DNA of 64,000 bases, taken from the NCBI GenBank assembly GCA_964453155.1, contig CAYVQU010000002.1, positions 11,240 to 75,239 on the forward strand, in the 5' to 3' direction. This document shows positions 3,978 through 28,045 of this stretch, in pieces. Both the position numbers and the translations under genes were made by a program. Source of the DNA: an uncultured Anaerolineales bacterium. Its GTDB lineage: Bacteria; Chloroflexota; Anaerolineae; Anaerolineales; UBA11858. The notes under the pieces are model-generated. The model was not told the DNA's origin and searched no databases. It was given only the letters and a program-made list of their open reading frames with translations. Within the stretch, counting starts at the first letter, position 1, and every line of letters begins with the position of its first letter.

Positions 3978-4056
3978 GTCCAACTTATCTAACGGGTCTG
4001 AGCGGTCGGATCCGCTATACAAATTAGACCACTTAGACTTTTACGACCTTTTTGAC
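3978..4056. repeat. 9-bp-phased GTC/GAC word array forming an imperfect palindrome
   Basis: GTC or ATC occurs at 3978, 3987, 3996 and 4005. GAC occurs at 4027, 4036, 4045 and 4054, exactly 9 bp apart. The last unit (TTGACA) doubles as a -35 box. Confidence 0.7.
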
Positions 4057-4080
4057 AAATACTCTCCCCCATGCTACAAT
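4052..4080 (+). promoter_or_regulatory. sigma70-type promoter (TTGACA, 17-bp spacer, TACAAT)
   Basis: TTGACA lies at 4052-4057, the spacer is exactly 17 nt, and TACAAT lies at 4075-4080. Confidence 0.6.
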
Positions 4081-4086
4081 CCTGCC

Positions 4087-4220
4087 CGGCGAGAGCACGC
4101 TGCCGCACGGCCGAAACTGATAAATCAGTCCTTGGCCCGTTGATACCTCGATAGAATGATCTACAATAGATTTTTTGAAGCGTTGATTAACCCGGTTGGC
4201 AGGTGCCACCGGGATTTTTT
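4087..4220 (+). ncRNA. candidate ~135-nt small RNA or terminated leader; family not recognised
   Basis: It is bounded by the near-consensus promoter at 4052-4080 and a strong intrinsic terminator at 4191-4220. It has internal hairpins (for example ACUGA-UAAA-UCAGU) and no credible ORF. It lies 220 nt upstream of rnj. Confidence 0.3.
4191..4220 (+). terminator. Rho-independent terminator
   Basis: The stem is CCCGG(U)UGGC / GCCACCGGG (9 bp with one bulge), the loop is AGGU, and AUUUUUUG follows. Confidence 0.7.
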
Positions 4221-4441
4221 GTTCCTACCCGCGTGTTCTCTGTAGCGATATCTGGTTCCCTGTGATGATTGGTTGAACATAAAAGGATCGCTACCCTAAC
4301 TTAAAACTATTCCCTCGAGATACAGAGGGTTTAAATACAATTCCATATCCGTTTCTTGACAGGTTACAGGACAGGCGTAAACCGTTTTTCGGGTTAAGCG
4401 CGTCTATCACCTGGGATTTGGGCGGATGAAAAGGTGAAAAA

Positions 4442-6079
4442 ATGAATAAAAAATTACGCATCATTCCCCTGGGTGGTCTGGGGGAAGTCGGTAAAAACAT
4501 GATGATCTACGAATACGATGATCAAATTTTGATCGTCGATACCGGGATCATGTTCCCCGACAACGATATGCTGGGGATCGACTATATCATCCCTGATTTC
4601 CAATATCTCAAAGATAACCGTGACAAAGTTGTGGGGATCGTTATTACCCACGGGCACGAAGATCATACTGGGGCCATCCGCCACGTTTTAGAAGAAATCA
4701 ATGCCCCCATCTATGCTACCCCGCTGACCCGCGGCTTAATCGAAGTGAAACTGTCGAAGGCTGGTTTACTGGGCGCGGCCGAACTGGTCACCGTCCAGGC
4801 CGGAGAAATGGTCGAAATCGGCCCCTTCGAAGTCGAATTCTTCCACGTCTGTCACTCGGTGCCCGATGCAGTTGGACTGGGGATCAACACGCCCGAAGGC
4901 TTGATCGTCCATGCCAGCGACTACAAATTTGACCCCACCCCCGTGGATGGTTGGCCCACCGATTTTGCCAAACTGGCCGAACTCTCGGGGCGCGGCGTCC
5001 TGGCTCTCTTTGCCGACTCCACCAACGCCGACAAACCCGGCTGGACCCCCTCTGAACGGGTCATTGACGGTGCGCTGGACGAAGTTTTCGCCCAGGCTCC
5101 CGGTCGAATTTTGGTAGCCTCCTTCGCCTCGCTGATCTCTCGGATGCAGCAGGTTGCCAACGCCGCTCACCGGCATGGTAAAAAATTGGCCTTTGTGGGG
5201 ATGAGCATGACGGCCAATGCTGAAATGGCTCAAAAATTAGGGTATTTGGACATCCCTGCCGGGGTAGAAGTGCCCCTGGATCAGGCCCTCAAAATGCAGG
5301 ATAGCAAAGTGGTTTTGATGTGCACCGGTTCTCAAGGCGAGCCCTCCTCAATTTTAGGTCGGCTCTCGGCCGGAACGAATCGCCGCTTTTCAGTTCAAGC
5401 CGGGGACACCATCGTGCTTTCTTCTCACCCCATTCCGGGGAATGAAGAGACCATTTACCGCACCATCAACCGCTTGTTCCGCCGCGGGGCCAATGTGATC
5501 TACGAACCGCTCTACTCGGTTCACGTTTCAGGCCACGCCAACCAAGATGAAATGCGCTTGCTGCTCCATCTGGTCAAACCCAAATACTTCATCCCCACCC
5601 ACGGTGAACTCCGCCACCTGAAACAGCACGCCCTCATCGCTGAAGATGCCGGAATCCCCTGGGAAAACATCGAAGTGATCGAAAACGGTCAAATCGTAGA
5701 GTTTTCCAACGGGATGATGCGCCTCGGCGACCGGATCCCCGGCGGCTATGTCTTCGTGGACGGGGCCCGCCCCGGCGAAGTCGGTCCCAGTGTGGTCCGC
5801 GAACGCGAAGCCCTGGCCCGGGACGGCATCGTCCTCGTCAGCCTAGCTCTAGACCAAAACGGCCGTTTACTCGACGAACCCGAGATCATCACCCGCGGCT
5901 TCATCTACAAACGCGACGCCGATGACCTCCTCAGCGAGACCATCGTCCGCATCGAAGATGTCATCGAACGCGGTAATGGCAGCATCCACGATGATGTCAA
6001 ACAAACCGTGCGCTCGTTCCTGTACAATGAAACGAAACGCCGTCCGCAGGTGTTTGTGACTTTAAGTTGGGTTAATTGA
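4442..6079 (+). CDS. rnj: ribonuclease J
   Basis: The N-terminus (LRIIPLGGLGEVGKNM), the metallo-beta-lactamase motif (THGHEDHTG), the beta-CASP region and the 545-aa length are all typical of RNase J. Confidence 0.9.
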   Translation: MNKKLRIIPLGGLGEVGKNMMIYEYDDQILIVDTGIMFPDNDMLGIDYIIPDFQYLKDNRDKVVGIVITHGHEDHTGAIRHVLEEINAPIYATPLTRGLIEVKLSKAGLLGAAELVTVQAGEMVEIGPFEVEFFHVCHSVPDAVGLGINTPEGLIVHASDYKFDPTPVDGWPTDFAKLAELSGRGVLALFADSTNADKPGWTPSERVIDGALDEVFAQAPGRILVASFASLISRMQQVANAAHRHGKKLAFVGMSMTANAEMAQKLGYLDIPAGVEVPLDQALKMQDSKVVLMCTGSQGEPSSILGRLSAGTNRRFSVQAGDTIVLSSHPIPGNEETIYRTINRLFRRGANVIYEPLYSVHVSGHANQDEMRLLLHLVKPKYFIPTHGELRHLKQHALIAEDAGIPWENIEVIENGQIVEFSNGMMRLGDRIPGGYVFVDGARPGEVGPSVVREREALARDGIVLVSLALDQNGRLLDEPEIITRGFIYKRDADDLLSETIVRIEDVIERGNGSIHDDVKQTVRSFLYNETKRRPQVFVTLSWVN

Positions 6080-6093
6080 TCACAACAAAATTT

Positions 6094-6330
6094 ACCGCTA
6101 ATCTACGCGAATAAACGCGAATTTGAAATTATTCGGAGAAATTTGTAGAAGTCAGATAGAGCTTGAACATCGTTGAGGCGCTGAGCGCGCAGAGATTTTT
6201 TCAATTTCGTGAGAAGATCCAGCGAACTCCGCGTCTCCGCGGTGAAAAAAAGTTTTCAAGCTGTGTTGACGACCATTACATAATCACCGTGAATTTAAAG
6301 TTATTCGTGAAAATTCGCTAGATTAGCGGT
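6094..6330. repeat. nested long inverted repeat filling the rnj-hemY spacer
   Basis: The outer arms are perfect over 12 bp: ACCGCTAATCTA (6094-6105) and TAGATTAGCGGT (6319-6330). The middle arms are GCTTGAA (6161-6167) and TTCAAGC (6255-6261). The inner part uses CGCAGAG/CTCCGCG words. The arms are built from ~10-bp-phased CGCGAAT/ATTCGCG words. Confidence 0.75.
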
Positions 6331-6447
6331 TTTTTTATTTTTCTGGGGGAAATTTCATGAAACACACACCAAAACCTATGTAAACCTACATCGTCTGATT
6401 TTTCACAAACGAATAAAATCGACGCACATCAACTTTTGGAGTACTTA

Positions 6448-7869
6448 ATGGTATCGACTCAGAATGCGTCGCAACATATTGTCATCGTTGGGGGTGGGAT
6501 CACCGGGCTGAGTGCAGCCTGGGAAATTCAACAAACTACTGATGAAAATATTACCTTTACTGTTTTAGAAAAATCAGATCGCTGGGGCGGCAAAGTTGTC
6601 ACCCAGACTATTGATCATCCCTCCGGCGAGCAATTCACCATTGACGCCGGGCCTGAGTCCTTCATTACCCGCAAACCCGAAGCCTGGGAACTGGTTCAAG
6701 AACTCGAAATGGATGACCAAGCCATTGATCCTGGCAGTGAAACCCAGCAGATCTACGTCTTGGATGATGGTAAGCCAGTTGCCATTCCCCTTTCGCCGCC
6801 CGCGTTCATCACCTCGAAATTGATGACCTGGCATGGTAAATTGCGGATGCTGGCGGAACCGTTCATCCCCGCCAAGCGGGATGGAGAAGACGAATCGCTG
6901 GCTCAATTTGCAGACCGGAGATTGGGGATCGAGGCCCGGGAAAAATTTATTGGCCCGGTGCTGGCGGGAATCTACAATACCAACCCCGAAACCCAAAGTA
7001 TCCTGACGACCTCCCCCATCATGCGGGAGATGGAAGCCGAATACGGTGGCCTGTTCAAAGGCGCTTTTGGCCGCATGCGGGTCGCTCGGAAAGAGAAAAA
7101 AATGGGTGAGCCGCAGAAACCACGTTTTGTGACTTTCAAAAACGGAGCCGAAGAACTCATCGCTCGTTTGGTAGAGAAACTAGACGGGGATTTACGCTTG
7201 AATACCGGGGTAACCAACATCACAAAAAATAGTACTGGCTACCAGGTTCAACTCACAGATGGCACGCAACTCGCAGCCGATGGCGTCATCCTGACGACGA
7301 TGGCCAATGTGAGCGCGCAAATTTTGGCTGAGATTGCTTCTGAGGCCGCGGCCGAACTCGTAAAAATCCGACACACGAATATCGGCACGATATCGTTGGC
7401 CTACGATCAAGCTCAGATCACAGATTTACCTTTTCGCGGATTGATGATCCCCCGGAGAGAAAAACGCGACATCGACGCCGTGACCTACACTTCGGCCAAA
7501 TTGGATATTCGCGCCCCCAAAGACTGCTCACTGGTTCGGGTGTTCTTCGGAGCCGGGAATCCCGACACCGTTCACCTGGATGATGACACCCTGTTGGCGA
7601 CCGTAAAACGGGAGTTACGGGAACTACTCGACATCCAAGTTGAACCTAGCGATTACCGCGTTTGCCGCTGGCCCGCTGAATTCCCCCAGGCCGACGTCGG
7701 TCACCTGGACCGCGTTGATGCCATTGAAGCCGCTCTCCCGGTTGGTCTGTACCTCGCCGGGAGTTCCTACCGCGGCATTGGCGTCCCCGATTGCGTCCGC
7801 CAGGGGAGAGATACAGCACTAGAATCGATAAAAAACATCACGCAAAGGCGTCAAGTCGCAAAGTTTTAA
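6448..7869 (+). CDS. hemY: protoporphyrinogen/coproporphyrinogen III oxidase (HemY/PPOX family)
   Basis: It has the FAD-binding motif IVIVGGGITGLSAAW and HemY-like length and layout. I chose the ATG at 6448 (GGAG sits 6 nt upstream) over the TTG at 6436. Confidence 0.8.
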   Translation: MVSTQNASQHIVIVGGGITGLSAAWEIQQTTDENITFTVLEKSDRWGGKVVTQTIDHPSGEQFTIDAGPESFITRKPEAWELVQELEMDDQAIDPGSETQQIYVLDDGKPVAIPLSPPAFITSKLMTWHGKLRMLAEPFIPAKRDGEDESLAQFADRRLGIEAREKFIGPVLAGIYNTNPETQSILTTSPIMREMEAEYGGLFKGAFGRMRVARKEKKMGEPQKPRFVTFKNGAEELIARLVEKLDGDLRLNTGVTNITKNSTGYQVQLTDGTQLAADGVILTTMANVSAQILAEIASEAAAELVKIRHTNIGTISLAYDQAQITDLPFRGLMIPRREKRDIDAVTYTSAKLDIRAPKDCSLVRVFFGAGNPDTVHLDDDTLLATVKRELRELLDIQVEPSDYRVCRWPAEFPQADVGHLDRVDAIEAALPVGLYLAGSSYRGIGVPDCVRQGRDTALESIKNITQRRQVAKF

Positions 7870-7925
7870 GTTTTTCATAGCGCCTTTGCGGCTCTGCGTG
7901 ATTAAAAGTATTAAGGAGAGAATTT

Positions 7926-9254: not shown

Positions 9255-9279
9255 TCGTATTTTCCCCCAAAATCTTGTT

Positions 9280-9873: not shown

Positions 9874-9970
9874 GTAATTTCCTGACAGGGGGGCTAGTTT
9901 GTGGGTTTGTTGGTTTGTTGGTTTGTTCGTTTTTTTCCCTAACGACCCAACTATCCAACCATCAAACCAA

Positions 9971-10651
9971 CTACCACAACTTAAACCGATCCCATTTCTT
10001 TTCATCCCAACCTTCCTCACCGATGAGGGGGACAAAAGCCACGGCCGTGATGGTATTCGTTTCGAATTTAGGACCTAACCGCTGCCAGACTTCGAGGGTT
10101 TGACTGTATTTACGACCAACAGGCAAGACCAAGCGACCCCCATCGGCGAGTTGATTCAGCAGGGGTTGGGGCACTTTGGGGGCCGCGGCGGTGACCATGA
10201 TGCCTTCATAGGGGCTGTGTTCAGGCAAGCCGAGAGTACCATCGCCAGTATGGACCTGGACATTGGAGAGACCGTGTTCGAGCAACAATTCTTGGGCTGC
10301 GTCAGCGAGGGGTCCATGGCGCTCGATGGTGTGAACTTCAGCGGCCAGATGACCCAAAACCGCGGCCTGATACCCTGATCCGGTGCCGACTTCGAGCACT
10401 TTCTCATTTCCCTGTAGTTTGAGCGCCGCGGACATCAACGCGACGATATAGGGCTGCGAGATGGTCTGCCCCATGTTGATTCGGAGCGCGCCATCGGAGT
10501 AGGCCCAGGTGCGCTGGTCTGCGGGGATGAAGCAATGGCGCGGCACGGTCCGCATGGCATGGAGCACCTGGGGATCGCGCACGCCCCGTTTGGCAATCTG
10601 CTCTTGGACCATATGTTCGCGTTGGCCGTCGAAATCTTCAGGGGATGTCAT
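9971..10651 (-). CDS. pcm: protein-L-isoaspartate O-methyltransferase
   Basis: It has the SAM motif VLEVGTGSGYQAAVL, the ISQPYIVALM block and the PLIGEEG C-terminal region typical of PIMT. Confidence 0.88.
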   Translation of the reverse strand: MTSPEDFDGQREHMVQEQIAKRGVRDPQVLHAMRTVPRHCFIPADQRTWAYSDGALRINMGQTISQPYIVALMSAALKLQGNEKVLEVGTGSGYQAAVLGHLAAEVHTIERHGPLADAAQELLLEHGLSNVQVHTGDGTLGLPEHSPYEGIMVTAAAPKVPQPLLNQLADGGRLVLPVGRKYSQTLEVWQRLGPKFETNTITAVAFVPLIGEEGWDEKKWDRFKLW

Positions 10652-10737
10652 AATAATTCAACGCAAAGACGCTGAGATGCAAAGGTGCAAAGATATTTTT
10701 ATAGTTCTTTGCATCTCGGCCCAGTTGCGCCTTTGCG

Positions 10738-11469: not shown

Positions 11470-11554
11470 GGGAAACTCCTAGGGATGAGATATCCCCATT
11501 ATACCTAAGAGATTTTGTTGATACGTGAAGCGTGATGAGTGAAATGTGAGATTC

Positions 11555-11563
11555 TGCTATAAT
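11555..11563 (+). promoter_or_regulatory. extended -10 promoter element (TGcTATAAT)
   Basis: TGCTATAAT lies at 11555-11563, about 10 nt before the left end of the IS200-like element. Confidence 0.45.
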
Positions 11564-11573
11564 CAAATCGCTC

Positions 11574-12208
11574 GGCGATAAATCATCGAGCTAACGGCTA
11601 AAGGACGGTGAACCGCCCTGTTATTAGCCCCAGCGGGGCTTGCGCTCTGAGCCTGGGAGTTTACCCCCAGGCGTTAGGAGGGAACTATGCCATATTGGCG
11701 ACTTTTCTATCACATTACTTGGGGGACGAAGCATCGATTACCACTCATCGAAAATTCTTGGGAAGATGATCTTTATGGTTATTTGTGGGGTAAAACGGAT
11801 GCTTTAGGTTGCATTCCGCACGCGATCATTGGGGTGGTAGATCATGTGCACATTGTTATTTCGATTCCCCCGAAGTTTGCGGTGGCAGAAGTTATTGGGA
11901 AACTCAAAGGTGCGAGTTCCCACCATGTCAATCAAACGATTTTGGGGGAGAAGAATTTTTATTGGCAAGCAGAATATGGGGTGATGACATTTTCTGAGCG
12001 GCACCTTTCAACGGTTGTAGCATATGTGCAAAATCAGAAGAAGCACCATGCTGAAGAATGGTTGTGGCCGATATTAGAGAGTCGTTCGATTGGAGCGCCC
12101 AGCGATAAATCACCGGGTTAAACGCTCAAGGACGGTAAACCGCCCTGATTATTAGCCCCAGCGGGGCTTGCGCGCTGAGCCTGGGGGTTTAGCCCCTGGC
12201 GAATTAGG
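11574..12208 (+). mobile_element. IS200/IS605-family element (tnpA only) with ~105-bp hairpin-bearing ends in direct orientation
   Basis: Coordinates 11574-11678 and 12102-12208 are near-identical direct repeats. Each carries two hairpins (AGCCCCAGCGGGGCT and GCCTGGG...CCCAGGC). They flank a Y1 HUH transposase gene. Confidence 0.7.
11687..12121 (+). CDS. tnpA: IS200-like Y1 (HUH) transposase TnpA
   Basis: It has the HUH motif (HVHIVISIP), a catalytic-Tyr region (VVAYVQNQKKHH) and the N-terminal block YHITWGTKHRLPLI. The length is 144 aa. Confidence 0.85.
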   Translation: MPYWRLFYHITWGTKHRLPLIENSWEDDLYGYLWGKTDALGCIPHAIIGVVDHVHIVISIPPKFAVAEVIGKLKGASSHHVNQTILGEKNFYWQAEYGVMTFSERHLSTVVAYVQNQKKHHAEEWLWPILESRSIGAPSDKSPG

Positions 12209-13766: not shown

Positions 13767-13887
13767 AACTCGCTTCCTTCAATTTTTGGAAAGTAAACCA
13801 CGAATTACGCTAATCCCCGTTAATTTCTTACAAAGATTGGCGAAAATTCGCGCAATTAGCGGTTTTAAATCCGCTTTTCTAGAATTA

Positions 13888-14598: not shown

Positions 14599-14714
14599 GG
14601 AGCCTCCGAAGATAAAAGATTAGGGGAGAAGGATTGGGGGAAAGAGTCATGCAACCCTATGCCCTAACACTTCATACCTTATCCTTTATAAATCTACCCC
14701 CAGCCCACAATACC

Positions 14715-15896
14715 CTAATAATATTCGTGTAAATAGGGCAATTTCTGGGGGAACATGGTCCGCAGGACTGCTTGTATCTCGAGAGATGGATCACCCCATC
14801 CCAAGAAGCAGAAATCTCCCGGATCGTTGGTACCATAAATTAGAGCGGATAAGCCTTGAATAGTGAGGGTGCAGTCGGCACTGGGGGCTGGGGAGACCTC
14901 CAGGGTACCGGAATCTCCCCTAAATTTCCAGATGCAGTTGTTCCAAGGGCAATCCGAGTCCACGATTTGGGCTGAGAACGTGCCGGGTTCGCACGGCATC
15001 CCATTTAATCCCTTAACATCCAAAACCCGGCCCATGGGGGCCACAAAGACGGGCTCCAACTCAGGACGGAGATCAGCCAGCCAGGTGCCAGGGCGCTCGT
15101 AGGCCGGGAGCCACATTTCGACTCGGTTAGCTTGATCGACGTGGCGGGCGATCCAATCGAGCATGAGATATTTGGCCGCGCTGGTCCGATAATAAAATCG
15201 AGGCGCTCGAAGTGTAAACCGCATAATCTCACCGCCGGTGAGTGAATAGACCATCAGCCCCACCAACTCGCCATCCACAATGGCTTTCAAGACCCAGCTC
15301 CGGTTACTCTGCGCACCTTCCTTTTGCGACTCTTCGAAATTGGCCATACCATGAATGCCGGGCTGCATGGCGAGAACATAATCGCGGTACTCATCGTAAA
15401 CATCGCCTACCAGCGCCAGTTCGCATTCTCCGGGGAGATCCATTTTGAAAATTGGCTGCAAATCCTGGGGATCGAAAATAGCCTGTCGAGTTTGGGGGAA
15501 AGTCACGTAGCCGAGGCGCTCGTAAAATGAGCCCCGGAATGGGTAGAGGCTGGAGACTACCCGGCCTTCGTTGACCTGTTGCTCATAGGCGTGGCGCATG
15601 AGTTGGCGCACGTAGCCCTTGCGACGAGCTTTGGGGTGGGTGGCGATACTCGCAAAGCCCCCCATCCTGAGGATTACCCCGCGCACATTCTGCGTGAGGG
15701 TCGGGCAGCCAACGACCGCGACGGCTTCAACGCCTTCAAATAGGGCGTAATAAGTCGGCCCTTTGCGCGTTTTCAGCCGCGTTTCCCACTCGGCTTTATC
15801 CGAGAAGGGTGGGTTGGCCGTATAGGCGTAGTTATCGAGCCAGTAGGTGATATCGAGAAGTTCTTGATCTTGGATTTGGCGGATGGTGGTGGACAT
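14715..15896 (-). CDS. Eis-like GNAT N-acetyltransferase with C-terminal SCP2-like domain
   Basis: It has GNAT motif A (HPKARRKGYVRQLM) and an Eis-family layout of about 390 aa. I chose the ATG at 15896 (MSTTIRQ) because the TTG-initiated extension to 15956 is encoded by a word-repeat spacer. Confidence 0.7.
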   Translation of the reverse strand: MSTTIRQIQDQELLDITYWLDNYAYTANPPFSDKAEWETRLKTRKGPTYYALFEGVEAVAVVGCPTLTQNVRGVILRMGGFASIATHPKARRKGYVRQLMRHAYEQQVNEGRVVSSLYPFRGSFYERLGYVTFPQTRQAIFDPQDLQPIFKMDLPGECELALVGDVYDEYRDYVLAMQPGIHGMANFEESQKEGAQSNRSWVLKAIVDGELVGLMVYSLTGGEIMRFTLRAPRFYYRTSAAKYLMLDWIARHVDQANRVEMWLPAYERPGTWLADLRPELEPVFVAPMGRVLDVKGLNGMPCEPGTFSAQIVDSDCPWNNCIWKFRGDSGTLEVSPAPSADCTLTIQGLSALIYGTNDPGDFCFLGWGDPSLEIQAVLRTMFPQKLPYLHEYY

Positions 15897-16019
15897 GGCA
15901 GTTGGTTTGTTAGTTGGATGGTTGGTGAAAAATTTTGAGCTGTCTGATTGGTTCAAAGAGTCTTACTGGTCGGACATTTCAAACCAATCAGACCTTTTGG
16001 AACCTTTTGACCAATTGGA

Positions 16020-16613
16020 CTACTTCCGTTGGCGGTAAAGATCAGGATCAACCACCGCTTGCATTTGCTCGATATCCAACTCTCCACCCAAAAATTCGTT
16101 GATTTTATGGACGTAGGGAGTGGGGTCAGCGAGCATAGCATTGTAATCGACATCGATATATTGTAGGTTGGATTGGCTGTCCATCCAGGCCTTGACTTGC
16201 TTGACATGCTTGGCAAACAGGTCGGCCATGGTGGCGTCGTCGACTTTAGAATCTTCACCGCGATTTGCGAGCATCTTGGCCTGGGAGGCTAATACTTCTT
16301 CGATTTTGCGGCGCATGAAGAGGACGCGGTACTCATAGTTATTGGGGAGGGAGGTTAGCAGCGCGCCGATCACTTTGACGGCTTTGCCTTCAGCATCGGG
16401 AAGCCAGGCGACATCGCCTTCTTTGAGCTTTTTGGCGCGCTCGAATTCATAATAACCCTTGGGGTTGTCGCTATCCGCGGTGCGGATATGGTCGGTGAGA
16501 GGGGGAATTCCACCCGCTTCGAGCATCGTCATCGTCATCGAGGTCCCCGAGCGCGGCAGTCCCGAGACGATGGTGATGGGTGTTTTTTTCTTGCGTTTGA
16601 ATAGTTTTAGCAT
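16020..16613 (-). CDS. sulfotransferase family protein
   Basis: It has the PAPS-binding 5'-PSB-like loop SGLPRSGTSMT. The length is 197 aa. Confidence 0.65.
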   Translation of the reverse strand: MLKLFKRKKKTPITIVSGLPRSGTSMTMTMLEAGGIPPLTDHIRTADSDNPKGYYEFERAKKLKEGDVAWLPDAEGKAVKVIGALLTSLPNNYEYRVLFMRRKIEEVLASQAKMLANRGEDSKVDDATMADLFAKHVKQVKAWMDSQSNLQYIDVDYNAMLADPTPYVHKINEFLGGELDIEQMQAVVDPDLYRQRK

Positions 16614-17639: not shown

Positions 17640-17735
17640 GTTCCAGGGAAAATAGGGACTAGGGGGCCGAGGTGAGGGGGGTGGGCAAGCTCCATAATTG
17701 CGGAGCCCTAACCCTTCACCCTTATCCCCTGCCCT

Positions 17736-19132: not shown

Positions 19133-21376
19133 TTATTCATATCGTAATGCTTCCACCGGTTGCAGTCGGGTGGCCCGAAAGGCCGGATAAATGCCACCGA
19201 GAATGCCCAAGAAAAGGGCAATGGCAATCGCGCGGGCAAAAATATCAATTTCCCAGATAATCGAATAGACATCACCCACCAGGGGAGCGTTATCAAGTAT
19301 ATAACCCAATCCAAATCCGATCAGGATACCGGTCAACCCACCCAAAATGCCCAGCCAAAACGCCTCTGTGACGATCATGCTCAAAATCCGGCGGCGGCGC
19401 CAACCTAAGGCCCGCAGCACACCGATTTCTCGGGTCCGTTCTAAAACGGCCATCAACATGGTATTCATCACGCCAAAACCGCCGACGGCAATTGCCAGGA
19501 AGGATATGGCCCCCATCATGACGTCCATGGCAGCCATATCGGGCATTTGTTCAGCGAATTCACCGGCGAGTGAGGCATGAGCTTCGGGGAATTGACGATT
19601 GATCTCGGCGACAATCTCGGGGGCGTCGGTGGGGTTATCCACTTTGACCATGTACATGCTGACTTTGCGGGGTTTGCCCACAATGGTCTGACCATCCCGC
19701 AAGGAGATGATGCCGCCCATTTCCATCCAGCCGGAACCACTTTCGTAAATGCCGACCACCTTGAAACGGCTGCCGATCAACTCAATCGTGTCGCCAATAT
19801 CCTTGTTCATGGCTTCGGCCATCATTTTGCCAAGGAGCATCTGATGGTTGCTGGTCAGCGGTTCCCCGGCAATAATGTTTTCTTGTTGAATACCATATTC
19901 GTTGGGAGCCATTCCCCGATAAATAAAGAAAGTTCCGGCTTCGGGGATCATCGTCGCGGAGAAAATCAGCCCACTCACAGCTCTGACGCCTTCTAAACCC
20001 GAAATCTGACTACCCAGGCGTTGATCGAGGGTACTGTAGCCTGTATCGGCGATGCCTGCTTGCCGGATCATAATTTCGGATTCGTTGCTAATTCCGCCAA
20101 TCATGTCCATCGTACCGCGCACCAGCGCTTCGAGGGCCGTGATCCCGCCGACGGTGATGCCGATCACACCGAGGGTCAGGAAGGTTCGGGAAGTACGCTG
20201 CCACAGGCTCTGGAGGGCCATTCCCCCAAAGGGCAATCGCCGGACTTTGCCGCCACTGCTACCCCCTTCATATCGGAGGGCTTCAACCGGGGGCATCCGA
20301 GAGGCTCGCCAGGCCGGGTAGGCCCCGCCAACAAATCCTAAAATCAACACGGTCATAAAGGCCTGGATCAAAATCGAGGCGCCGATATTTTCCACACCAG
20401 CCCCAAAGAAAGTCATAAAATCAGAAAGTGCGGCCATCATTAGCCAACCGAAGATGACGCCAACTAATCCACCCAAAAAGCCGACCAAAACCGATTCGCT
20501 CAAAATCAAAAGCATCACCCGCCGCTTGCTCCAGCCAATCGACCGTAATACGCCGATCTCCTGGGTACGCTCGATGACAGCCATGAGCTGGGAGTTCATC
20601 ATGCTGACACCACCGATGACAATGGCCAGCCCGGCGATGCCCCAGGCAAACCCGTTCATGGTTTGACCCATGATTTGTTTATCAGCAAACGTTTCGGTAG
20701 TGTTGACCTCGGCTTCAGGCCAGAAGCGGTTAATCCGGGTTTCGACCCGCTCCGTCATGGAGGGGTCTTTAAGTTGGACATAAAATATATTGACGGTGCG
20801 CTGCTTGCCCAGCAGGGTTTGGGCATCTTCCAACCGCATTACCCCGCCGCTGTCTTCGAGTTCCTGGCCGGTTTCGTAGATGCCCACAATCCGGAAGACA
20901 CTGTCGAGCATCCGCAGGGAGTCACCGGGCTTCTTTTCTAGTATTTCAGCCGCATTGGCTCCCAGAATGACGGGTTTACCTTTAACTCGGCTGGCATCCC
21001 GACTGTCGAGAGCTACTCCCTCAATGATATTGAATTTACCCAACACAAAACTATCAGCCGGATAGCCAAAAACAAAGAAATAGGGCACGGTCTCGGTTTG
21101 GACGAAACTCTGCATCATCGCGCTGACATCCGAGACTTCGGCCATTTTTTCCAGTTCATCCCCTATGCTTTCATCGAGGGAACTGATGCTGACATCCATT
21201 GATTCGGATTGCGAAATGACCAGATCAGCTTTGCTGCCAGTAATGAATGAGTCGTAACCGGCCTGAACACCCTCGGCCAGTGCGCCCAGGGCTACAATCG
21301 CGGCTACCCCCATAGAAATCGCGAGTACCGTCAGAATGGTCCGTCCCTTGCGTCGTGAAAGGTTTTTTAAGATCAT
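19133..21376 (-). CDS. ABC transporter permease with two MacB_PCD/FtsX modules
   Basis: The FtsX-type C-terminal block is duplicated (REIGVLRSIGWSKRRV and REIGVLRALGWRRRRI; both copies end PVEALRYE). Confidence 0.85.
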   Translation of the reverse strand: MILKNLSRRKGRTILTVLAISMGVAAIVALGALAEGVQAGYDSFITGSKADLVISQSESMDVSISSLDESIGDELEKMAEVSDVSAMMQSFVQTETVPYFFVFGYPADSFVLGKFNIIEGVALDSRDASRVKGKPVILGANAAEILEKKPGDSLRMLDSVFRIVGIYETGQELEDSGGVMRLEDAQTLLGKQRTVNIFYVQLKDPSMTERVETRINRFWPEAEVNTTETFADKQIMGQTMNGFAWGIAGLAIVIGGVSMMNSQLMAVIERTQEIGVLRSIGWSKRRVMLLILSESVLVGFLGGLVGVIFGWLMMAALSDFMTFFGAGVENIGASILIQAFMTVLILGFVGGAYPAWRASRMPPVEALRYEGGSSGGKVRRLPFGGMALQSLWQRTSRTFLTLGVIGITVGGITALEALVRGTMDMIGGISNESEIMIRQAGIADTGYSTLDQRLGSQISGLEGVRAVSGLIFSATMIPEAGTFFIYRGMAPNEYGIQQENIIAGEPLTSNHQMLLGKMMAEAMNKDIGDTIELIGSRFKVVGIYESGSGWMEMGGIISLRDGQTIVGKPRKVSMYMVKVDNPTDAPEIVAEINRQFPEAHASLAGEFAEQMPDMAAMDVMMGAISFLAIAVGGFGVMNTMLMAVLERTREIGVLRALGWRRRRILSMIVTEAFWLGILGGLTGILIGFGLGYILDNAPLVGDVYSIIWEIDIFARAIAIALFLGILGGIYPAFRATRLQPVEALRYE

Positions 21377-21628
21377 GTTTTTTTAGGAAATGGGTATTTG
21401 GTGATTAGGTGATAAGGCAACCTGTTACCTGATCACTTGTTACCTGGTCACCTGCCCCGAAATTATGCTCCTGCGGGGAGGGTTGATCACCCATAAAATA
21501 TAAGTGGTTGGGGGTGGGATGGTTTAGGATTGTTTTAATATTCGAACGATTTACCATCCCACCTTGGCAAATTTCGGTTCGAGCAAGATTTAAATTTTCA
21601 CGCTATCTCCGAAATTTGCCGAGAGAAA

Positions 21629-22432
21629 TTAAATTTCAGTAATTTCGGGGACGGTCAGCAGGTGAAAGGCCAGGGTAGACATCCAGGGGGCTTTGCGGAG
21701 TTTGCCGCCGGGCTGATTGGAGGTGGCCCGTTGGGTGATGGCCCGACAGTGTTCGAGCACGGCCTCGTCGGTGAAATACATATCCAGGGGCACCTCACCG
21801 GTCAAAATTTCACGCACGCCCAGTTTGCGATAAATGGTGCTGATAATTTCTGAGACCCACCCGGCACCCAAGACCAATTCATCCGCAATATCCCGAATGG
21901 CCAGATTGAAGATGATCCCCAGACGGATAAGTTCGTTTTCACGCCGGGAGAATTTAGTCGTCAGACGACGACCATCGAGGATCAAGGTGCCAGTCGGGAA
22001 GGCATACCGGCCTGCCGATTTATGGATCCCCGGAGAAATGACGCAAGTGTCATTATAGACAGCCGCGACGACAGCACCCAGGGCATATAAGATATCCTGT
22101 TTCAGGACATAGCCACTGCACTGCGAGTGAATAATTTCATCTAAAACTTCTCTTTTTGCCAACGTACCGGTATACAGAATTTTTGGAGGGTGCGGCATCT
22201 GCTGAGTTAGGGCTGCCAGCTTGAGGGGGAGTCCCGGTTCCCCTGGAATCTCGGTATCAATAATGACCACATCGACCGTTTGCAGTTCATCGGTGAGAAA
22301 CAGCTCTAACTCTTTCTCACCATAAACTTCACCAACCACCCGGGTTCGCCAATCACGAGTCAACAGCAGCGACATGAGATCGCGGGCGTAGGGGTCGTCT
22401 TCGATAATCAGTACACGGATGTCTTTGGCCAT
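21629..22432 (-). CDS. response regulator, REC domain plus LuxR-type HTH
   Basis: The REC domain shows VLIIEDDPYARD and VVIIDTEIPG. The HTH region shows RENELIRL...IRDIADELVLGAGWVSEIISTIYRKLGV. No histidine kinase gene is adjacent. Confidence 0.75.
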   Translation of the reverse strand: MAKDIRVLIIEDDPYARDLMSLLLTRDWRTRVVGEVYGEKELELFLTDELQTVDVVIIDTEIPGEPGLPLKLAALTQQMPHPPKILYTGTLAKREVLDEIIHSQCSGYVLKQDILYALGAVVAAVYNDTCVISPGIHKSAGRYAFPTGTLILDGRRLTTKFSRRENELIRLGIIFNLAIRDIADELVLGAGWVSEIISTIYRKLGVREILTGEVPLDMYFTDEAVLEHCRAITQRATSNQPGGKLRKAPWMSTLAFHLLTVPEITEI

Positions 22433-22446: not shown

Positions 22447-22479
22447 GTCTAAATGGTCGGAAAGGTCTAAGTTGTCGAG
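22447..22479. repeat. 9-bp-phased GTC word array directly upstream of the response-regulator start
   Basis: GTC occurs at 22447, 22456, 22465 and 22474 (GTCTAAATG GTCGGAAAG GTCTAAGTT GTCGAG). Confidence 0.65.
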
Positions 22480-23048: not shown

Positions 23049-23050
23049 TT

Positions 23051-23080: not shown

Positions 23081-23744
23081 AGACCTCCACAAATATCTCA
23101 CAAGTAATACTCGGTCCCAAAACCACCGGTTCAGGCTGTCCGTCTACTTGAATTTTGAGATTACCATCGAAAGGCGAGATTTCGACCACCGTCAGAACCG
23201 CATGGGGTACAACGCCATTTTCGCCCAGGTAACGCAGTAATTCGGGGTCATCATCCGGAACTTGTTTGATCTCCGCCCGTTGGCCGATGGACAAATCTCC
23301 TAAACAGAGTGAAGTCGTCGCGGGGACTTTTAAATCACGAGAAGGGATCGGGGCGCCATGAGGATCATACTCCGGATTGCCTAACACTGCCGCCATCCGC
23401 TCAACAAAACGCGGCGAGATAACGTGCTCCAGGCGATGGGCTTCAGCATGCACCTCATCCCAGGGGAAGCCTAATATTTCATGGAGAAATTGTTCCAACA
23501 ACCGATGGCTGCGCGTAATTTTTAGCGCGGCATGTTCACCATCAGTGGTCAAAGTAACGCCGTAATGTTTCTTATACTCCACTAACGGCTGCTGGCTTGC
23601 GGCCAATTTCTGGATCATCCCGGTGACCGAGGCCGGTTTGACCTCCAACGCAGCGGCAATATCTTTCGTGCTGGCGCGGCCATGTTGGGCAGACAGATCG
23701 TAGATGATCTTGAGATAGTCTTGAATGGCGGGGGTTAAGTTCAT
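23076..23744 (-). CDS. DtxR/MntR-family metal-dependent transcriptional regulator with C-terminal FeoA/SH3-like domain
   Basis: The N-terminal wHTH shows AIQDYLKIIYDL...STKDIAAALEVKPASVTGMIQKL. The metal-site region shows HRLEHV...DPHGAPIP. An SH3-like tail follows. Confidence 0.85.
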   Translation of the reverse strand: MNLTPAIQDYLKIIYDLSAQHGRASTKDIAAALEVKPASVTGMIQKLAASQQPLVEYKKHYGVTLTTDGEHAALKITRSHRLLEQFLHEILGFPWDEVHAEAHRLEHVISPRFVERMAAVLGNPEYDPHGAPIPSRDLKVPATTSLCLGDLSIGQRAEIKQVPDDDPELLRYLGENGVVPHAVLTVVEISPFDGNLKIQVDGQPEPVVLGPSITCEIFVEVL

Positions 23745-23808
23745 AATTCGTGAGGCATGGAGCGTGAAGCGTGATGAATTTCAAGTCTCACGTATCACGC
23801 TTCACGGA

Positions 23809-24417
23809 TTATTTCTTTGAAAATCCAATCATTGGCAAAAACCTGCCGGTTCTGGTCATGTAATCCCGATATTCATCACCAAATTTCGCGATCAAGTTGG
23901 CTTCTTCTTGGGGGGTGCGGAACGCCATGATGATGAAGGTCAGTAAGCCCAGAAGCATGATGAACCAGTTATCGGCCATCAAGCCAAATGAGATGAAAAA
24001 GGTGGTCCCAATTGTGTAGAGGGGATGTCGCACCCAGCGATAAGGGCCACTCGTAGAAAGTTCGTGTTCTGTCCGGGTGGCACTGGTAGGGGTGATCCCG
24101 CTGCCGATGCTGCTGAACAACCAGTAAATACCGATGGTGCATAAAATACCAAGAACAGCGCCAGCCCAGCGAAAACCGACTAGCAATCCGAGTTTAGACC
24201 AGTTCATCCAGTGGGGATTGATCAAATAAGCCAGGGGGCTTAGCCACAAAACCAACCCACCAATCCGAATGATACTCAGCAGGGCAGTTCCATCGACACG
24301 ACGAGAGACTTGCTCCCCTGATTCCTGATCCGCCTTGCGCCGGAAATAGGCCGAGATGCCAAAACCAGTAAAGAAGATGAGACTAGCCAGCAGGCGAAAG
24401 ATGCTTTCGTTGTTCAT
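23809..24417 (-). CDS. ICMT/PEMT-family membrane methyltransferase
   Basis: It has YRWVRHPLYTIGTTFF...PQEEANLIAKFGDEYRDYMTRTGRFLP. Confidence 0.7.
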   Translation of the reverse strand: MNNESIFRLLASLIFFTGFGISAYFRRKADQESGEQVSRRVDGTALLSIIRIGGLVLWLSPLAYLINPHWMNWSKLGLLVGFRWAGAVLGILCTIGIYWLFSSIGSGITPTSATRTEHELSTSGPYRWVRHPLYTIGTTFFISFGLMADNWFIMLLGLLTFIIMAFRTPQEEANLIAKFGDEYRDYMTRTGRFLPMIGFSKK

Positions 24418-24489
24418 CAGTACCAGGGTTAGGGGACAAGAGTAAAGGGACAGGAAAATCCCTCAACCTTTATCCCTTCACCCCTATTT

Positions 24490-25920
24490 TTATCCTGCAA
24501 ATAACCGCCACACCTGAGCGACTACAAATGTGATTACAAAGCCCATCAGCACTGGGGCCAGCGAAGCGACCCAGGTCCATTTGGCATTGCCAGTTTCTTT
24601 GTAGATGGTGTAGATGGTTGTGCTGCACGGGTTATGGATCAGACTGAAGAGCATCAAGTTGACGGCCGTCAGTAAGGTCCAGCCCCCGGCTTGGAAGAGA
24701 GCCATTGTCTCCATTCCGGATTCAAGTTCGAACATCACGCCCGTTCCTTCGCCGACGCCGGAAACACCGGTCACCAGGACGGTTAGCATCATAATAGTGG
24801 GAATGACAATCTCGTTAGCAGGGATGGCGACAATATAGGCCACCAAGATCACACCATTCAACCCTAGGAGCAAGCCAAAGGGGTTTAGGAAATCGATCAG
24901 ATGTCCGGCGATGCTGACCCCAGCAATGTTGATATTCGCACTCAGCCACAGGACGGCGCCCGCGGGAAGGGCGAACACAATGGCGCGCCACAGCACGATC
25001 AAAGTCCGGTCGATGATGGAGGTATAGATGGTCTGCCAGATACGGGGTGGGCGATATGGCGGTAATTCCAAACTAAAGGTGGAAACTTCGCCTTTGAGCC
25101 AGGTTTTGGAGAGAAACATAGAGGTCAAAAAGGTCAGCAATATCCCTAAAAGGGCGATGCCCACCACCGCCAGGGCCGATATCACGCCGGCCAAGGCGGG
25201 CGGCACCAGCGCGCCAATGAACAGGCTGGCAATCAAAATTTGCGTCGGCCAGCGGCCGTTACAGAGGGCAAAGTTGTTGGTGATGATGGCGATCAAGCGT
25301 TCCCGGGGGCTGTCAATGATCCGGGTAGCAACTACTCCGGCGGCATTGCAGCCAAACCCCATCGTCATGCTGAGGGCTTGTTTGCCGTGGGCCCCAGCTT
25401 TGCGAAACATATTATCCAGGTTAAACGCGACCCGGGGGAGATAACCAAAGTCTTCGAGCAGCGTGAACAGCGGGAAGAAAATGGCCATCGGGGGCAGCAT
25501 CACGCTGATGACCCAGCCGGTAGCGAGGTACATCCCGTCGATCAACAGACCATCGAGCCACCAGGGCATGTTGATGGCAGCCGCCAGCCCCTTAAGCCAG
25601 GGATGGATGGTATCCAGGAAGAGAGTCGCCAGCATTGAGGAGGGTACATTGGCTCCCGAGATCGTCAGCCAAAAGACGATCATCAGCAGGAGCAGCATCA
25701 GGGGGAAACCCCAGACCCGACTGGTTAAGATTTGGTCAAGTTTGCGGTCAAAATCGAAGCGCGGTTTCTCTTCGGGGCGAGTCACGGCTCGGTCGGCGAT
25801 TTGGGCCGCGTCGGTATACATCGTTTCCATCAATTTTTCGTGAAAATCCACACCGACTTCCCAGCGCAGGGATTGAGCGGCATTCAGAATTTCATCGGGG
25901 GAGGTTGTGTTTGTGGTCAT
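24490..25920 (-). CDS. feoB: FeoB membrane (gate/nucleoside-recognition) portion, separate ORF
   Basis: Its N-terminus aligns with the end of the FeoB helical domain (AAQIADRAV...[19 protein letters not shown]), and the polytopic FeoB core follows. A GGAG RBS lies 7 nt before the ATG. Confidence 0.85.
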
Positions 25921-25934
25921 AATTTCTCCGTGGT

Positions 25935-26002
25935 CAGTGAACAGTTATCAATGGTCGGTAATCAGTGAGCACTGTTTACTGCTAACCGATAACTGTTTAC
26001 TG
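25935..26002. repeat. nested hairpin element at the FeoB split point
   Basis: CAGTGAACAGTTATC (25935-25949) pairs with GATAACTGTTTACTG (25988-26002), matching 14 of 15 positions. An inner pair is CGGTAATCAGT / ACTGCTAACCG. The stop codon of the G-domain ORF (25997-25999) lies in the right arm. Confidence 0.7.
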
Positions 26003-26833
26003 ATTCCCGATCACTTGCAACTGTGCGGCCCGGGACTCAATATCACCATGCGTCAAATCGCCAAGTTCACCCCGGCGCAGGGCCTCGGCAATGCGTTCGT
26101 CGCCGTCGAGGAGGCGGAGGGCCACCCACCGGGCATTGGGCAGCTCGGGGTAAGCGGTTTCGATTTGAGCTGTGAGTTGGGAGACCGCTTTTTTGAGTTC
26201 GGGTGAGTCATAGTTTACTTTGTAGGGGTTTCCGACGACCTCGCCGCTGGCAACTTCATTGACAGCCTGCAAAAGTTCGGGAACCCCTTCACCTTGACGG
26301 GCCACCATTGGAACCACCGGCACCCCTAAATCCCGTGCCAGCCGCCGTTCATCAATATCGAGGCCGTGCCGCTGAGCTTCATCCATCAAATTCAGGGCCA
26401 CGACGGCTCGATTGGTAATTTCCAAGACCTGTAAAACCAGGTTCAAATTGCGTTCCAGGCGGGTAGCATCCACCACCACAATCGTCACATCTGGTTGGCC
26501 AAATAGAATGAAATCGCGGGCCACTTCCTCGTCCAGGCTGGTTGCCAGGAGGGAGTAGGTGCCGGGGAGATCTACGAGCTTGAACTTGGCATCGGCATAC
26601 TCAAAACCACCTTCAGCGCGCGTCACAGTTTTGCCAGGCCAATTGCCCGTGTGCTGACGCAGACCGGTCAGAGCATTGAAAACGGTGCTTTTTCCCGTAT
26701 TGGGGTTCCCAGCCAGGGCGATCACATAATCGAAATCCGTCATATCGACGCCGAGTTTACGCAACGCAGCCGCATTGTGAACCGGGCAAGTAGCGCAGCC
26801 GTCGGCAGAGACATTAACATTGGTTGTCATCAT
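25997..26833 (-). CDS. feoB: FeoB N-terminal GTPase plus part of the helical domain, separate ORF
   Basis: It has G1 (GNPNTGKST), G3 (DLPG), G4 (NLMD) and RWVALRLLDGD of the helical domain. It ends inside the repeat element. Confidence 0.85.
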   Translation of the reverse strand: MMTTNVNVSADGCATCPVHNAAALRKLGVDMTDFDYVIALAGNPNTGKSTVFNALTGLRQHTGNWPGKTVTRAEGGFEYADAKFKLVDLPGTYSLLATSLDEEVARDFILFGQPDVTIVVVDATRLERNLNLVLQVLEITNRAVVALNLMDEAQRHGLDIDERRLARDLGVPVVPMVARQGEGVPELLQAVNEVASGEVVGNPYKVNYDSPELKKAVSQLTAQIETAYPELPNARWVALRLLDGDERIAEALRRGELGDLTHGDIESRAAQLQVIGNQ

Positions 26834-26914
26834 TTTTTTCCTTCACTTTTTGCATACCGTAAAGCGTGATACGTACTTACAAATCATCACGCATCACGGT
26901 TTACATTTCAGGTA

Positions 26915-27949
26915 TCAGCATTCCCCCATTTCGGGGCAAACGGTAATTAACTTAGCTTGTGATTTGCGCAGGGCAATCACTGCTCCGCGGACACGATAAG
27001 CGATGGGATCACCGCCGGCCGATGCCATCTCGACTTCAATGGTCGTACCGGGTAGTAGACCGAGGTCCATTAAGCGGCGGCGTTCGGCCCCTCGAATTCG
27101 AGGGGATACTTCTACGACCTCGGCTTCTTGACCGGGTTTGAGATTGGTCAGCGGTTCTCCGGGGACAGCCTCGGCTTCAGGTTGTTCGGCTACCGGGACC
27201 ACCGCGATATTGTTGGCCAAAATTGGCGCCAGAATATGTTCATCACCCCCGGCCCAAAAGCGGACCCGTTGAGACGAGGTCTCGAGCAATCGAACTTCCT
27301 GACCGACATGCAGACCCTCCGCGACGAGTTGGGCATAAACCGCCTCAGGCTCATCTTCCATATGGATGATGCGGGCCGGGGTATTTAGATCGAGTTGGGT
27401 CAGGGCTTTGCGGTCAGCGGGATAGACCACAGTCCCGTCAGCCATGGGGATGGGGTCGCCATGGGGGTCATGGGTGGGATTCCCCAGTTGGTAAGCCAGT
27501 TTTTCGACCTCTTCTGGAGTGAGTTGATGCTCCAGCTGATGTGCTTTGGTGTGCCATTCGGATTCTTCAAAACCGGTCTGTTCGGCCAGATAGCGTTCAT
27601 AGATGCGATGGGCGCGAATGACTCGCAGGGCATAATCGCGCCCCGCGGTTGTCAGGCTGAAGTCAGTGCCGGCCATTTTGATGAGATCATGAGCCTCGAG
27701 ATTAGAGATCACATCCGCAGCCTGACTGGTGCTGATGTTCAGAGCACCTGCCAGACTCTCCACGGAAGGTTGTCCACCGTGAATGTCAAAATCATGAATA
27801 TGTTTGAGCGCATCCTCGTTCAAGACACGGTCCGTCATTTCATTGGTACGCTGCCAACGCCAGTACAATCCGCGTTCAGGCCAAAAGATCAACAGGCCCA
27901 CGGCTGTCAGCACGGCGGCGATGATTAAGGAAGATAAGGGATCGGGCAT
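26915..27949 (-). CDS. membrane-anchored DtxR-like regulator fused to two FeoA domains
   Basis: It has an N-terminal TM helix (LIIAAVLTAVGLLIFW), a DtxR-type wHTH with dimerisation/metal region (RAHRIYERYL...HQLEH...DPHGDPIP), and two FeoA/SH3-like repeats. The second repeat is LKPGQEAEVVEV...LMDLGLLPGTTIEV. Confidence 0.75.
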   Translation of the reverse strand: MPDPLSSLIIAAVLTAVGLLIFWPERGLYWRWQRTNEMTDRVLNEDALKHIHDFDIHGGQPSVESLAGALNISTSQAADVISNLEAHDLIKMAGTDFSLTTAGRDYALRVIRAHRIYERYLAEQTGFEESEWHTKAHQLEHQLTPEEVEKLAYQLGNPTHDPHGDPIPMADGTVVYPADRKALTQLDLNTPARIIHMEDEPEAVYAQLVAEGLHVGQEVRLLETSSQRVRFWAGGDEHILAPILANNIAVVPVAEQPEAEAVPGEPLTNLKPGQEAEVVEVSPRIRGAERRRLMDLGLLPGTTIEVEMASAGGDPIAYRVRGAVIALRKSQAKLITVCPEMGEC

Positions 27950-27966
27950 AAGGTCACCTCGGTGGG

Positions 27967-28045
27967 GTCTAAATCGTCCAAGATATCTGATAGGTCTAAC
28001 TGGTCATTGGCTTTGACATTTTCGACAAATTTGACCTATCAGATA
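27967..28045. repeat. 9-bp-phased GTC/GAC palindromic array upstream of the DtxR-FeoA gene
   Basis: GTC or ATC occurs at 27967, 27976, 27985, 27994 and 28003. GAC or GAT occurs at 28015, 28024, 28033 and 28042. The array includes a perfect 13-bp inverted repeat: TATCTGATAGGTC (27984-27996) and GACCTATCAGATA (28033-28045). Confidence 0.75.

Follow-up and report, generated by a model that had tools for sequence, protein, structure and literature searches.

The DNA considered here is a stretch of 64,000 nucleotides (contig CAYVQU010000002.1, positions 11,240 to 75,239 of the forward strand), below called the window, from an uncultured marine Anaerolineales bacterium of which identical contigs occur in several marine metagenomes. 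The best relative of its RNase J among 185,579 species genomes is 75% identical. In this window, runs of the trinucleotide GTC in exact 9-bp phase are followed by runs of GAC in exact 9-bp phase at 3978-4057, 15933-16022, 27967-28062, and 41021-41116, and a half array with GTC units only is found at 22447. A first-pass annotation had listed four loci in the 64 kb. Arrays are present at all four places, and the number rises to five with the locus at 15933-16022. Searches for repeats and enzymes in the host covered the window, 10% of which is intergenic, and no further arrays were found in ~14 kb of additional sequence taken from beyond its two ends. The arrays and the signals next to them are as follows.

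3978..4057: array of locus 1, 9-bp GTC/GAC, left arm 3978-4016, right arm 4018-4057 (GTC at 3978, 3996, and 4005; ATC at 3987; GAC at 4027, 4036, 4045, and 4054)
4052..4080, plus strand: promoter-like TTGACA-17-TACAAT, RNase J leader, 11/12 consensus match
15933..16022: array of the fifth locus, 9-bp GTC/GAC, found by a tolerant scan, same build as the listed loci (GTC at 15942, 15960, and 15969; GAC at 15973, 15991, 16009, and 16018)
22447..22476: half array of locus 2, GTC only, without GAC partner and without fold (four GTC, at 22447, 22456, 22465, and 22474)
27967..28062: array of locus 3, 9-bp GTC/GAC, with a 13-bp perfect inverted repeat (GTC at 27967, 27976, 27994, and 28003; ATC at 27985; GAC at 28015, 28024, and 28033; GAT at 28042 and 28051)
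28095..28123, minus strand: predicted promoter-like TTGACA-17-TAAAAT, 11/12, with TG
40681-40995, plus strand: full-length T-box leader (RF00230, 78 bits, E 3e-17, below the 93-bit gathering score; GGGUGGUACCGCG present)
40983-41015, plus strand: T-box terminator hairpin and U tract from the terminator scan, directly upstream of locus 4
41021..41116: array of locus 4, 9-bp GTC/GAC, five GTC (41021-41057) and seven GAC (41060-41114) with GTCGAC at the center

Locus 1 starts 4 nt past the stop codon (3972-3974) of a gltD-like (glutamate-synthase small-subunit-like) gene, and at its other end the last unit shares sequence with the -35 box of a promoter ~360 nt upstream of the RNase J gene. The first-pass annotation had regarded this box as the last unit of the array. 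The box and its promoter are present, but the -35 context, TTTTGACAAA, is conserved in relatives without the array. In relatives L007-L011, the region upstream of RNase J contains a terminator, a promoter with the same -35 context (CTTTTGACAAAG; in L011 TTTGACAAATAC, identical to the window), and a conserved leader, and no array. Since the box is present in array-less relatives, the array was added upstream of a pre-existing promoter, and the last 'unit' is that ancestral RNase J promoter.

At the fifth locus, the array begins on a stop codon at 16020-16022 (minus strand), which belongs to a sulfotransferase-like gene, and 37 nt separate its end from the start of a GNAT gene, which is inferred to lie at 15896 (the mechanically called open reading frame starts at TTG 15956). 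Locus 2 lies ~14-15 nt upstream of a response-regulator start codon at 22432, and locus 3 lies in a divergent spacer, ~18 nt from the start codon of a DtxR-FeoA gene; the distances of ~15 and ~18 nt given earlier for these loci were right. The response regulator had been called LuxR-type. Its receiver domain is recognized by Pfam, which gives that domain only, whereas the LuxR-type label corresponds to weak full-length alignments with the NarL family. If the minus-strand promoter at 28123-28095 is real, locus 3 lies within the 5' leader of the feo operon mRNA. Finally, locus 4 is located between the T-box terminator and a DinB-like start codon and ends 7 nt before the ATG at 41124.

Thus, the loci do not all occupy 5' regulatory positions, as had been claimed. 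They are found after a stop codon, upstream of a promoter, in a 5' leader, and in the gap between a T-box and a start codon, with no common position relative to promoters or start sites across the five. The downstream genes, encoding RNase J, a GNAT protein, a response regulator, DtxR-FeoA, and a DinB-like protein, are unrelated. The terminator scan, which found canonical sites such as 40983-41015, detected no intrinsic terminator at the arrays and no T tract after them. Rfam at gathering thresholds gave no match in the window and, at relaxed thresholds, matches to the neighboring T-box only and none at the arrays.

Architecture of the arrays and departure from chance

The full element is a quasi-palindrome of 80-100 nt, i.e., [GTC-N6]n and then [N6-GAC]n, with arms of 4-7 units. 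At every full locus, the GAC phase equals the GTC phase +3 or +4, which places both arms on one lattice, flipped at a GTC(N)GAC center. Degenerate units have mirrored counterparts in the opposite arm, with ATC/GAT at locus 3 and, at the fifth locus, GTT/AAC; this mirroring, together with the fixed phase offset, fits arms that are derived from each other. The perfect 13-bp inverted repeat noticed earlier at locus 3 was confirmed (TATCTGATAGGTC at 27984-27996 and GACCTATCAGATA at 28033-28045) and includes the matched degenerate ATC/GAT pair. The 47 aligned units yield the consensus T-Y-n-G-A-C-M-W followed by n (T 40/47, Y 41/47, a 25/47, G 42/47, A 46/47, C 41/47, M 37/47, W 37/47), with the T alternating between positions -3 and -2. 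When the loci were aligned with each other, no register stood out by a clearly higher identity outside the core, with the exception of a single arm pair (71%). Neither the cross-locus alignment nor the register tests gave evidence of a common master element from which the five loci were copied.

The departure from chance is large. At period 9, the window has 43 positions with at least three of five phased GTC or GAC, whereas each other period between 5 and 14 yields 0-6. Five arms have at least four of five phased cores, while 300 local shuffles gave 0.027 such arms on average and never more than 1, and GTC and GAC rank top among all 64 trinucleotides at this threshold. Chance low-complexity sequence or a by-product of codon periodicity might be suspected, since weak three-unit phased runs of GTC or GAC also occur within genes, e.g., near 33670 and 44588, and since 3-of-4 phased GTC occurs equally often at periods 6 and 9 in relatives. 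Besides the excess of arms, however, the confinement of the signal to period 9, the intergenic location of all five loci (P ~1e-5), the conservation of extended motif positions that were unused in the search, and the pairing of inverted arms in fixed register contradict such an origin, which is refuted and retains a practically negligible probability. The first-pass claims of an exact 9-bp phase in a shared, non-random family and of arrays that lie outside genes rather than being equally common inside them are thereby borne out.

A 9-mer weight matrix, applied as a lattice, scored all nine arms at 20-37 bits and nothing else in the window, against a shuffle maximum of 14.8-19.6 (three shuffles of 1.4 Mb). 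Since these same arrays served to train the matrix, there is some circularity in the window scores, but none in those of the relatives (see below). On the GTC/GAC arrays, Tandem Repeats Finder reports only 41068-41089 (2.4 copies, score 30). Standard tandem-repeat finders are blind to the arrays because the units are degenerate, with ~6/9 positions constrained.

Sister families, relatives, and metagenomes

An autocorrelation scan, together with inspection of every intergenic spacer, revealed at least eight further families of the same build (periodic arm, loop, reverse-complement periodic arm), with other cores and with periods of 7, 8, and 10. Approximately 16 further spacers carry such arrays; with the five GTC/GAC loci, ~21 were counted by eye. 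A generic detector of the form [core]n-loop-[reverse-complement core]n found 8 loci in the window, with several cores and periods of 7-10, vs. 0 in 10 shuffles. In relatives, it found ~0.7 per 64 kb, mostly artefacts. The arrays of the other families are listed here.

23745..23808: CGTGA/TCACG, period 7, filling an entire 64-nt intercistronic spacer
26850-26914: CGTGA, period 7, second copy
~11526-11553: CGTGA, period 7, half array, preceding TGCTATAAT
14610-14714, 17640-17735, and 24418-24489: AGGG/CCCT, period 7
25921..26030: CAGT/ACTG, period 7
7835-7900 and 10652-10737: GCAAAG/CTTTGC, period 8
9885..9985: GGTTTGTT/CCAAC, period 8
21377..21462: AGGTGAT/ATCACCT, period 8
41620..41767: CGCTAAT/CGCGAAT, period 10, between the DinB-like and ileS-like genes
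6085-6340 and 13790-13887: CGCTAAT/CGCGAAT, period 10, other copies

Most arrays begin within 0-5 nt of the stop codon that precedes them. Base counts over 18 arrays show a G-rich 5' arm (G 209, C 124) and a C-rich 3' arm (G 102, C 199). In the AGGG/CCCT arrays, one arm has 4-6 G-runs and the other is telomere-like (CCCTAA), and these arrays could form a G-quadruplex or i-motif besides hairpins.

The relatives examined comprise 84 related loci, 1.38 Mb in total, around RNase J and FeoB genes. GTC/GAC arrays were absent from this set in strict scans and in the weight-matrix lattice scan. In relatives at 88-92% FeoB identity, the feo operon spacers are 11-28 nt long without periodic arrays, vs. 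64-81 nt in the window, where each spacer is filled by an array and the arrays of this operon have period 7. The CAGT array is a clean 65-nt insertion relative to L206, located exactly between the stop codon and the Shine-Dalgarno sequence, and the unit of this insertion resembles the conserved gene end AATCAGTA(A/G). The closer relative P0003 (93% FeoB identity) has feo spacers of 32, 66, 79, and 49 nt, known from their lengths alone. Within the population itself, represented by 4-12 metagenome contigs, the arrays are invariant, with 0-1 differences.

Metagenomes were scanned with the pattern AGAC(N5) x5. As this pattern forces AGAC and period 9, core conservation across lineages is not provable from the matches, and only the inverted architecture and the intergenic location count as independent observations. 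The matches listed are mostly coding sequences or simple tandem repeats. Among them, intergenic palindromes of GTCT-then-AGAC with period 9 are found in ~15 unrelated contigs with a GC content of 52-67%, and the GTC arm comes first 17 times vs. 6. One of these contigs (L142, 67% GC) has such palindromes at 2879-2983, between the genes for methylmalonyl-CoA mutase and meaB, and at 3925-4074, after meaB. The closest named relatives of this mutase are Armatimonadota proteins.

Candidate explanations and described repeat systems

Among described sequences, the arrays are most like the short tandemly repeated repetitive (STRR) hairpins of filamentous cyanobacteria. STRR sequences usually consist of near-identical 7-bp repeats that form hairpins between genes of one operon, e.g., hupS-hupL, and a function in transcript stability or translational coupling was proposed (PMC2670836). 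In both cases, short units in tandem occupy non-coding DNA, are hairpin-capable, lie between genes, and are lineage-specific. In the window, non-coding tandem repetition of a short unit (5-11 nt) was found, as were inverted hairpin arrays between genes (4/5 loci fold). Near-identical units that can be detected as simple tandem repeats were not found at these loci, where the core and 2-3 flanking positions are conserved. Unlike the STRR unit, that of the window is degenerate and 9 bp long with ~6/9 positions constrained, and the host belongs to the Chloroflexota and is not a cyanobacterium.

The TAACTGA heptamers of marine Beggiatoaceae, some Cyanobacteria, and Bacteroidetes are exact, almost always direct (169 direct sets vs. 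one indirect), and oriented with the downstream gene, and a binding protein was suggested for them (PMC4679880). Like the arrays of the window, they are abundant short intergenic repeats, often a few nt from start codons and upstream of unrelated genes; in contrast to them, the window arrays are inverted pairs of degenerate units without strand preference. Within the same phylum, Chloroflexus aurantiacus contains dispersed (GATAGRA)n satellites, which were interpreted as having spread within the genome and likewise represent a single short repeat family scattered through it (PMC6749651). Compared by description only, these differ in unit and period, and inverted pairs are not among their features as far as these are described in the part of that source considered here (PMC6749651).

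The repetitive extragenic palindromic (REP) sequences, including BIME and REPIN, are single hairpins of 20-40 nt with a GTAG or CGTC tag and are associated with RAYT transposases (PMC3733652; PMC3116915; PMC2817692). They share with the arrays the presence of multiple extragenic palindromic copies after stop codons and in operons, the coexistence of families, the frequent arrangement in inverted pairs, and a presence that varies among relatives. However, REP arms lack internal periodicity and REP copies align, whereas the window arrays share the unit only. No common terminal GTAG or CGTC tag was found in the five loci. There is no RAYT in the window, where the Y1 transposase matches the IS200 model with 71.5 bits (cut-off 55) and the RAYT model with 24 bits (cut-off 80). 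Miniature inverted-repeat transposable elements (MITEs) were rejected, as the copies are not alignable along their length and no flanking target-site duplications were seen at the listed loci. DnaA boxes, DtxR/IdeR boxes, arrays of -35 boxes as promoters, and DrdI-type GAC-N6-GTC sites were discarded for poor sequence match or geometry. The arrays differ from the known systems in their 9-bp period, in the conserved core of their degenerate units, in the obligatory inverted pairing on one lattice, and in the host phylum.

Folded as single-stranded molecules, all four full arrays give long, imperfect hairpins (-23 to -35 kcal/mol; z-scores between -3.3 and -6.2). They might therefore be RNA modules in 5' leaders and intercistronic regions that affect mRNA stability, RNase III processing, or translational coupling, similar to the role proposed for STRR hairpins (PMC2670836). 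The position of locus 3 downstream of a predicted promoter, that of locus 4 in a leader downstream of the T-box terminator, and that of sister families exactly between stop codon and next start codon in the feo operon would agree with such a role. The sense and antisense strands allow a further distinction, since G-U pairs become A-C on the opposite strand, so that hairpins maintained as RNA should fold better as sense. No such sense-strand advantage was found over 18 arrays (totals of -608 vs. -600 kcal/mol), and 3/4 arrays of the GTC family are less stable as the sense strand, which fits a DNA-level origin. Moreover, the half array at 22447 fails to fold (-2.9 kcal/mol, z +0.87), the promoter that locus 1 abuts is downstream of the array, and no Rfam family matches the arrays. 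For left arms, a right arm from another locus is also as good a pairing partner as that of the same locus (-27.1 vs. -28.2 kcal/mol). This equality indicates that the common feature is an oriented motif on a lattice and not locus-specific base pairing. Pairing and strand results argue against a tuned RNA structure and leave a DNA-level repeat element or a protein-binding lattice; the RNA modules thus appear quite improbable.

We lean, with moderate confidence, toward the view that the GTC/GAC arrays represent one family among many of dispersed, lineage-specific elements that are palindromic and built from short tandem repeats, resemble STRR and REP sequences, and are passively transcribed as generic hairpins. 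We hold this view because the generic detector finds its 8 loci in the window and none in shuffles, most arrays follow directly on stop codons, and the feo arrays are missing in relatives, while the GTC family is absent from the 1.38 Mb. It is further based on the heterogeneous contexts, the pre-existing -35 box at locus 1, the mirrored units, the folding without strand preference, the palindromes in unrelated contigs, and the published precedents.

In such a scenario, two degenerate 9-bp arrays, placed head to head on a single uninterrupted lattice, would make up the full element. The arrays would arise or spread by a process at the DNA level, possibly by tandem duplication combined with fold-back (inverted) duplication of local sequence, or by microhomology-guided copying from another array. 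They would be tolerated as they lie outside coding sequence and fold back on themselves. Most of them are probably located inside transcription units, so that the transcripts would contain them as long imperfect stem-loops, either directly behind stop codons or within leaders. In these positions, the hairpins may have at most generic effects, i.e., protecting or processing mRNA ends or bringing a stop codon to the next start codon.

The first-pass annotation had proposed a shared cis-element. This holds in the sense of a common, non-random intergenic family but not in that of a regulatory module for promoters and regulator genes, which is unsupported because the positions vary, the genes are unrelated, the -35 box is ancestral, and the same architecture with other cores is present in ~16 other spacers. 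A transcription-factor operator was also rejected, since there is no fixed promoter position and the RNase J promoters and feo operons of relatives are without arrays. Consequently, the arrays are probably not switches or dedicated operators of the neighboring regulator genes.

Several observations weigh against dispersed repeats of this kind. Conservation is much higher in the core (T 40/47, G 42/47, A 46/47, C 41/47) than at the remaining unit positions (38-57%), and T at -3 and Y at -2 are conserved even though they were outside the search criterion; neutral repeat decay would not leave a conserved core with a free spacer. The half array at 22447 retains core and phase without a hairpin partner, and the equal pairing of arms within and between loci points in the same direction. 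A mobilising enzyme was not found in the window, whose single Y1 transposase is of the IS200 type and is not flanked by these arrays, and the 4-12 same-population contigs showed no variation in unit number and, thus, no sign of ongoing slippage. Finally, each core has one period, and the pairs GCA[AG]AG/8, CGT[GA]A/7, and CGC[GT]AAT/10 recur in a few distant Anaerolineales; for instance, the GCAAAG core is also found at period 8 in relative L011, and the CGCTAAT/CGCGAAT period-10 unit in relative L060. Such a fixed link between core and period is more suggestive of recognition or copying than of random local slippage.

Because of the conserved core, the half array, and the core-period coupling, a protein-binding lattice stays alive as a rival. 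According to this alternative, a hypothetical sequence-specific DNA-binding protein reads T-Y-n-G-A-C-M every 9 bp, and the array serves as a cooperative multi-site platform on which two oppositely oriented filaments meet at the dyad. The subunits would spiral and return to the same helix face after 7 units (63 bp), and the protein could be nucleoid-associated, a global regulator, or an enzyme that spreads the repeats. Arrays read by ribbon-helix-helix proteins, such as the omega heptads of pSM19035, the ParG tetramer boxes, and the met-boxes of MetJ, consist of contiguous 7-8 bp units with a small conserved core in direct and inverted orientation and are read cooperatively by many dimers. They are located at promoters of the protein's own operon or at the plasmid partition site. 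The contiguous short units, the small core, and both orientations are shared with the window arrays, but the latter lie at five chromosomal loci beside unrelated genes, have a 9-bp period, and are without known cognate protein. The strict phase, the variable spacer beside the core, and arms of 4-7 units would suit such a platform, as would the equal arm pairing within and between loci, the constant orientation among the metagenome matches listed, and the recurrence of core-period pairs of the other families in distant relatives. In contrast, the lack of a fixed position relative to promoters, the unrelated downstream genes, and the absence of the arrays from the relatives examined are difficult to reconcile with it. 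Each of the eight or more other families, which differ in core and period, would require a protein of its own, no candidate protein was identified, and a regulator of the NarL type, as beside locus 2, is not known to bind such lattices. Altogether, we consider a protein lattice possible but rather doubtful.

A bolder proposal is also conceivable, although we regard it as speculative and unlikely. The arrays could belong to a so far undescribed 'lattice palindrome' system in Anaerolineales and at least one Armatimonadota-like lineage, in which families with a fixed core-period pair (GTC/9, CGTGA/7, AGGG/7, GCAAAG/8, CGCTAAT/10) and the G-rich arm first are made or maintained by dedicated machinery. 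This machinery may be a set of sequence-specific array-binding proteins or template switching directed by microhomology with nearby motifs (e.g., -35 boxes or gene ends). If true, lattice palindromes could rewire promoter-proximal and intercistronic regions.

If the arrays are dispersed repeats, as we favor, they should be annotated as such and not as operators, which would avoid false regulon predictions in uncultured Chloroflexota. The arrays explain why intergenic spacers are much longer than in relatives, and similar elements with degenerate units may be widely overlooked, being invisible to standard tandem-repeat finders. The conserved core with its free spacer, the single period per core, also in distant relatives, and the constant orientation point to a specific recognition or copying mechanism, and a second tractable system would help to understand the function of the cyanobacterial STRR sequences.

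Further features of the window and its surroundings

The leader of the RNase J gene is long, ~360 nt (4052-4441 in the window; ~9750-10000 in L007-L011). The RNase J promoter and a terminator-like hairpin (4190-4222 in the window) are conserved in position across the Anaerolineales relatives, and the leader could be autoregulatory. In relatives, groEL precedes rnj; in the window, gltB and gltD intervene.

Two other repeated structures in the window contain inverted or hairpin-forming sequences. An IS200/IS605-type Y1 transposase gene (11687-12121; Pfam Y1_Tnp 2e-23; region 11560-12200) is flanked by ~100-bp direct repeats with small hairpins (11573-11672 and 12103-12200), which are unrelated to the arrays; a link between the arrays and this transposase is not supported. 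Furthermore, a self-complementary MITE-like element of ~205 bp is present in two inverted copies (85% identical; 30166-30367 and 31354-31555) that flank the gene at 30434-31357, with an outer inverted repeat around the pair at 29453-29495 and 32249-32291. A link between the arrays and this element (30166/31354) is not supported either. Within the gene at 33238-34179, a coding repeat at 33649-33736 has periods of 6, 9, 18, and 27 nt and the consensus ATGGTCGTGATGCTGGTGATCATGGTC; it is unrelated to the intergenic arrays.

The DinB-like open reading frame (41124-41585) lies between the T-box and the ileS-like gene (41768-45217) and is bracketed by two repeat arrays. In relative L011, at 20017-20638, a gene for a GxxExxY protein (TIGR04256, 133 bits; 20136-20543, minus strand) is bracketed by inverted GCAAAG/GCAGAG period-8 arrays, which behave like arms around this small, selfish-looking gene. 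Finally, L220, in the 5 kb to the left of the window, has classical terminators without repeat arrays, and at ~800-840 it carries a CIRCE-like inverted repeat, TTAGCACTC-N9-GAGTGCTAA, upstream of groES.

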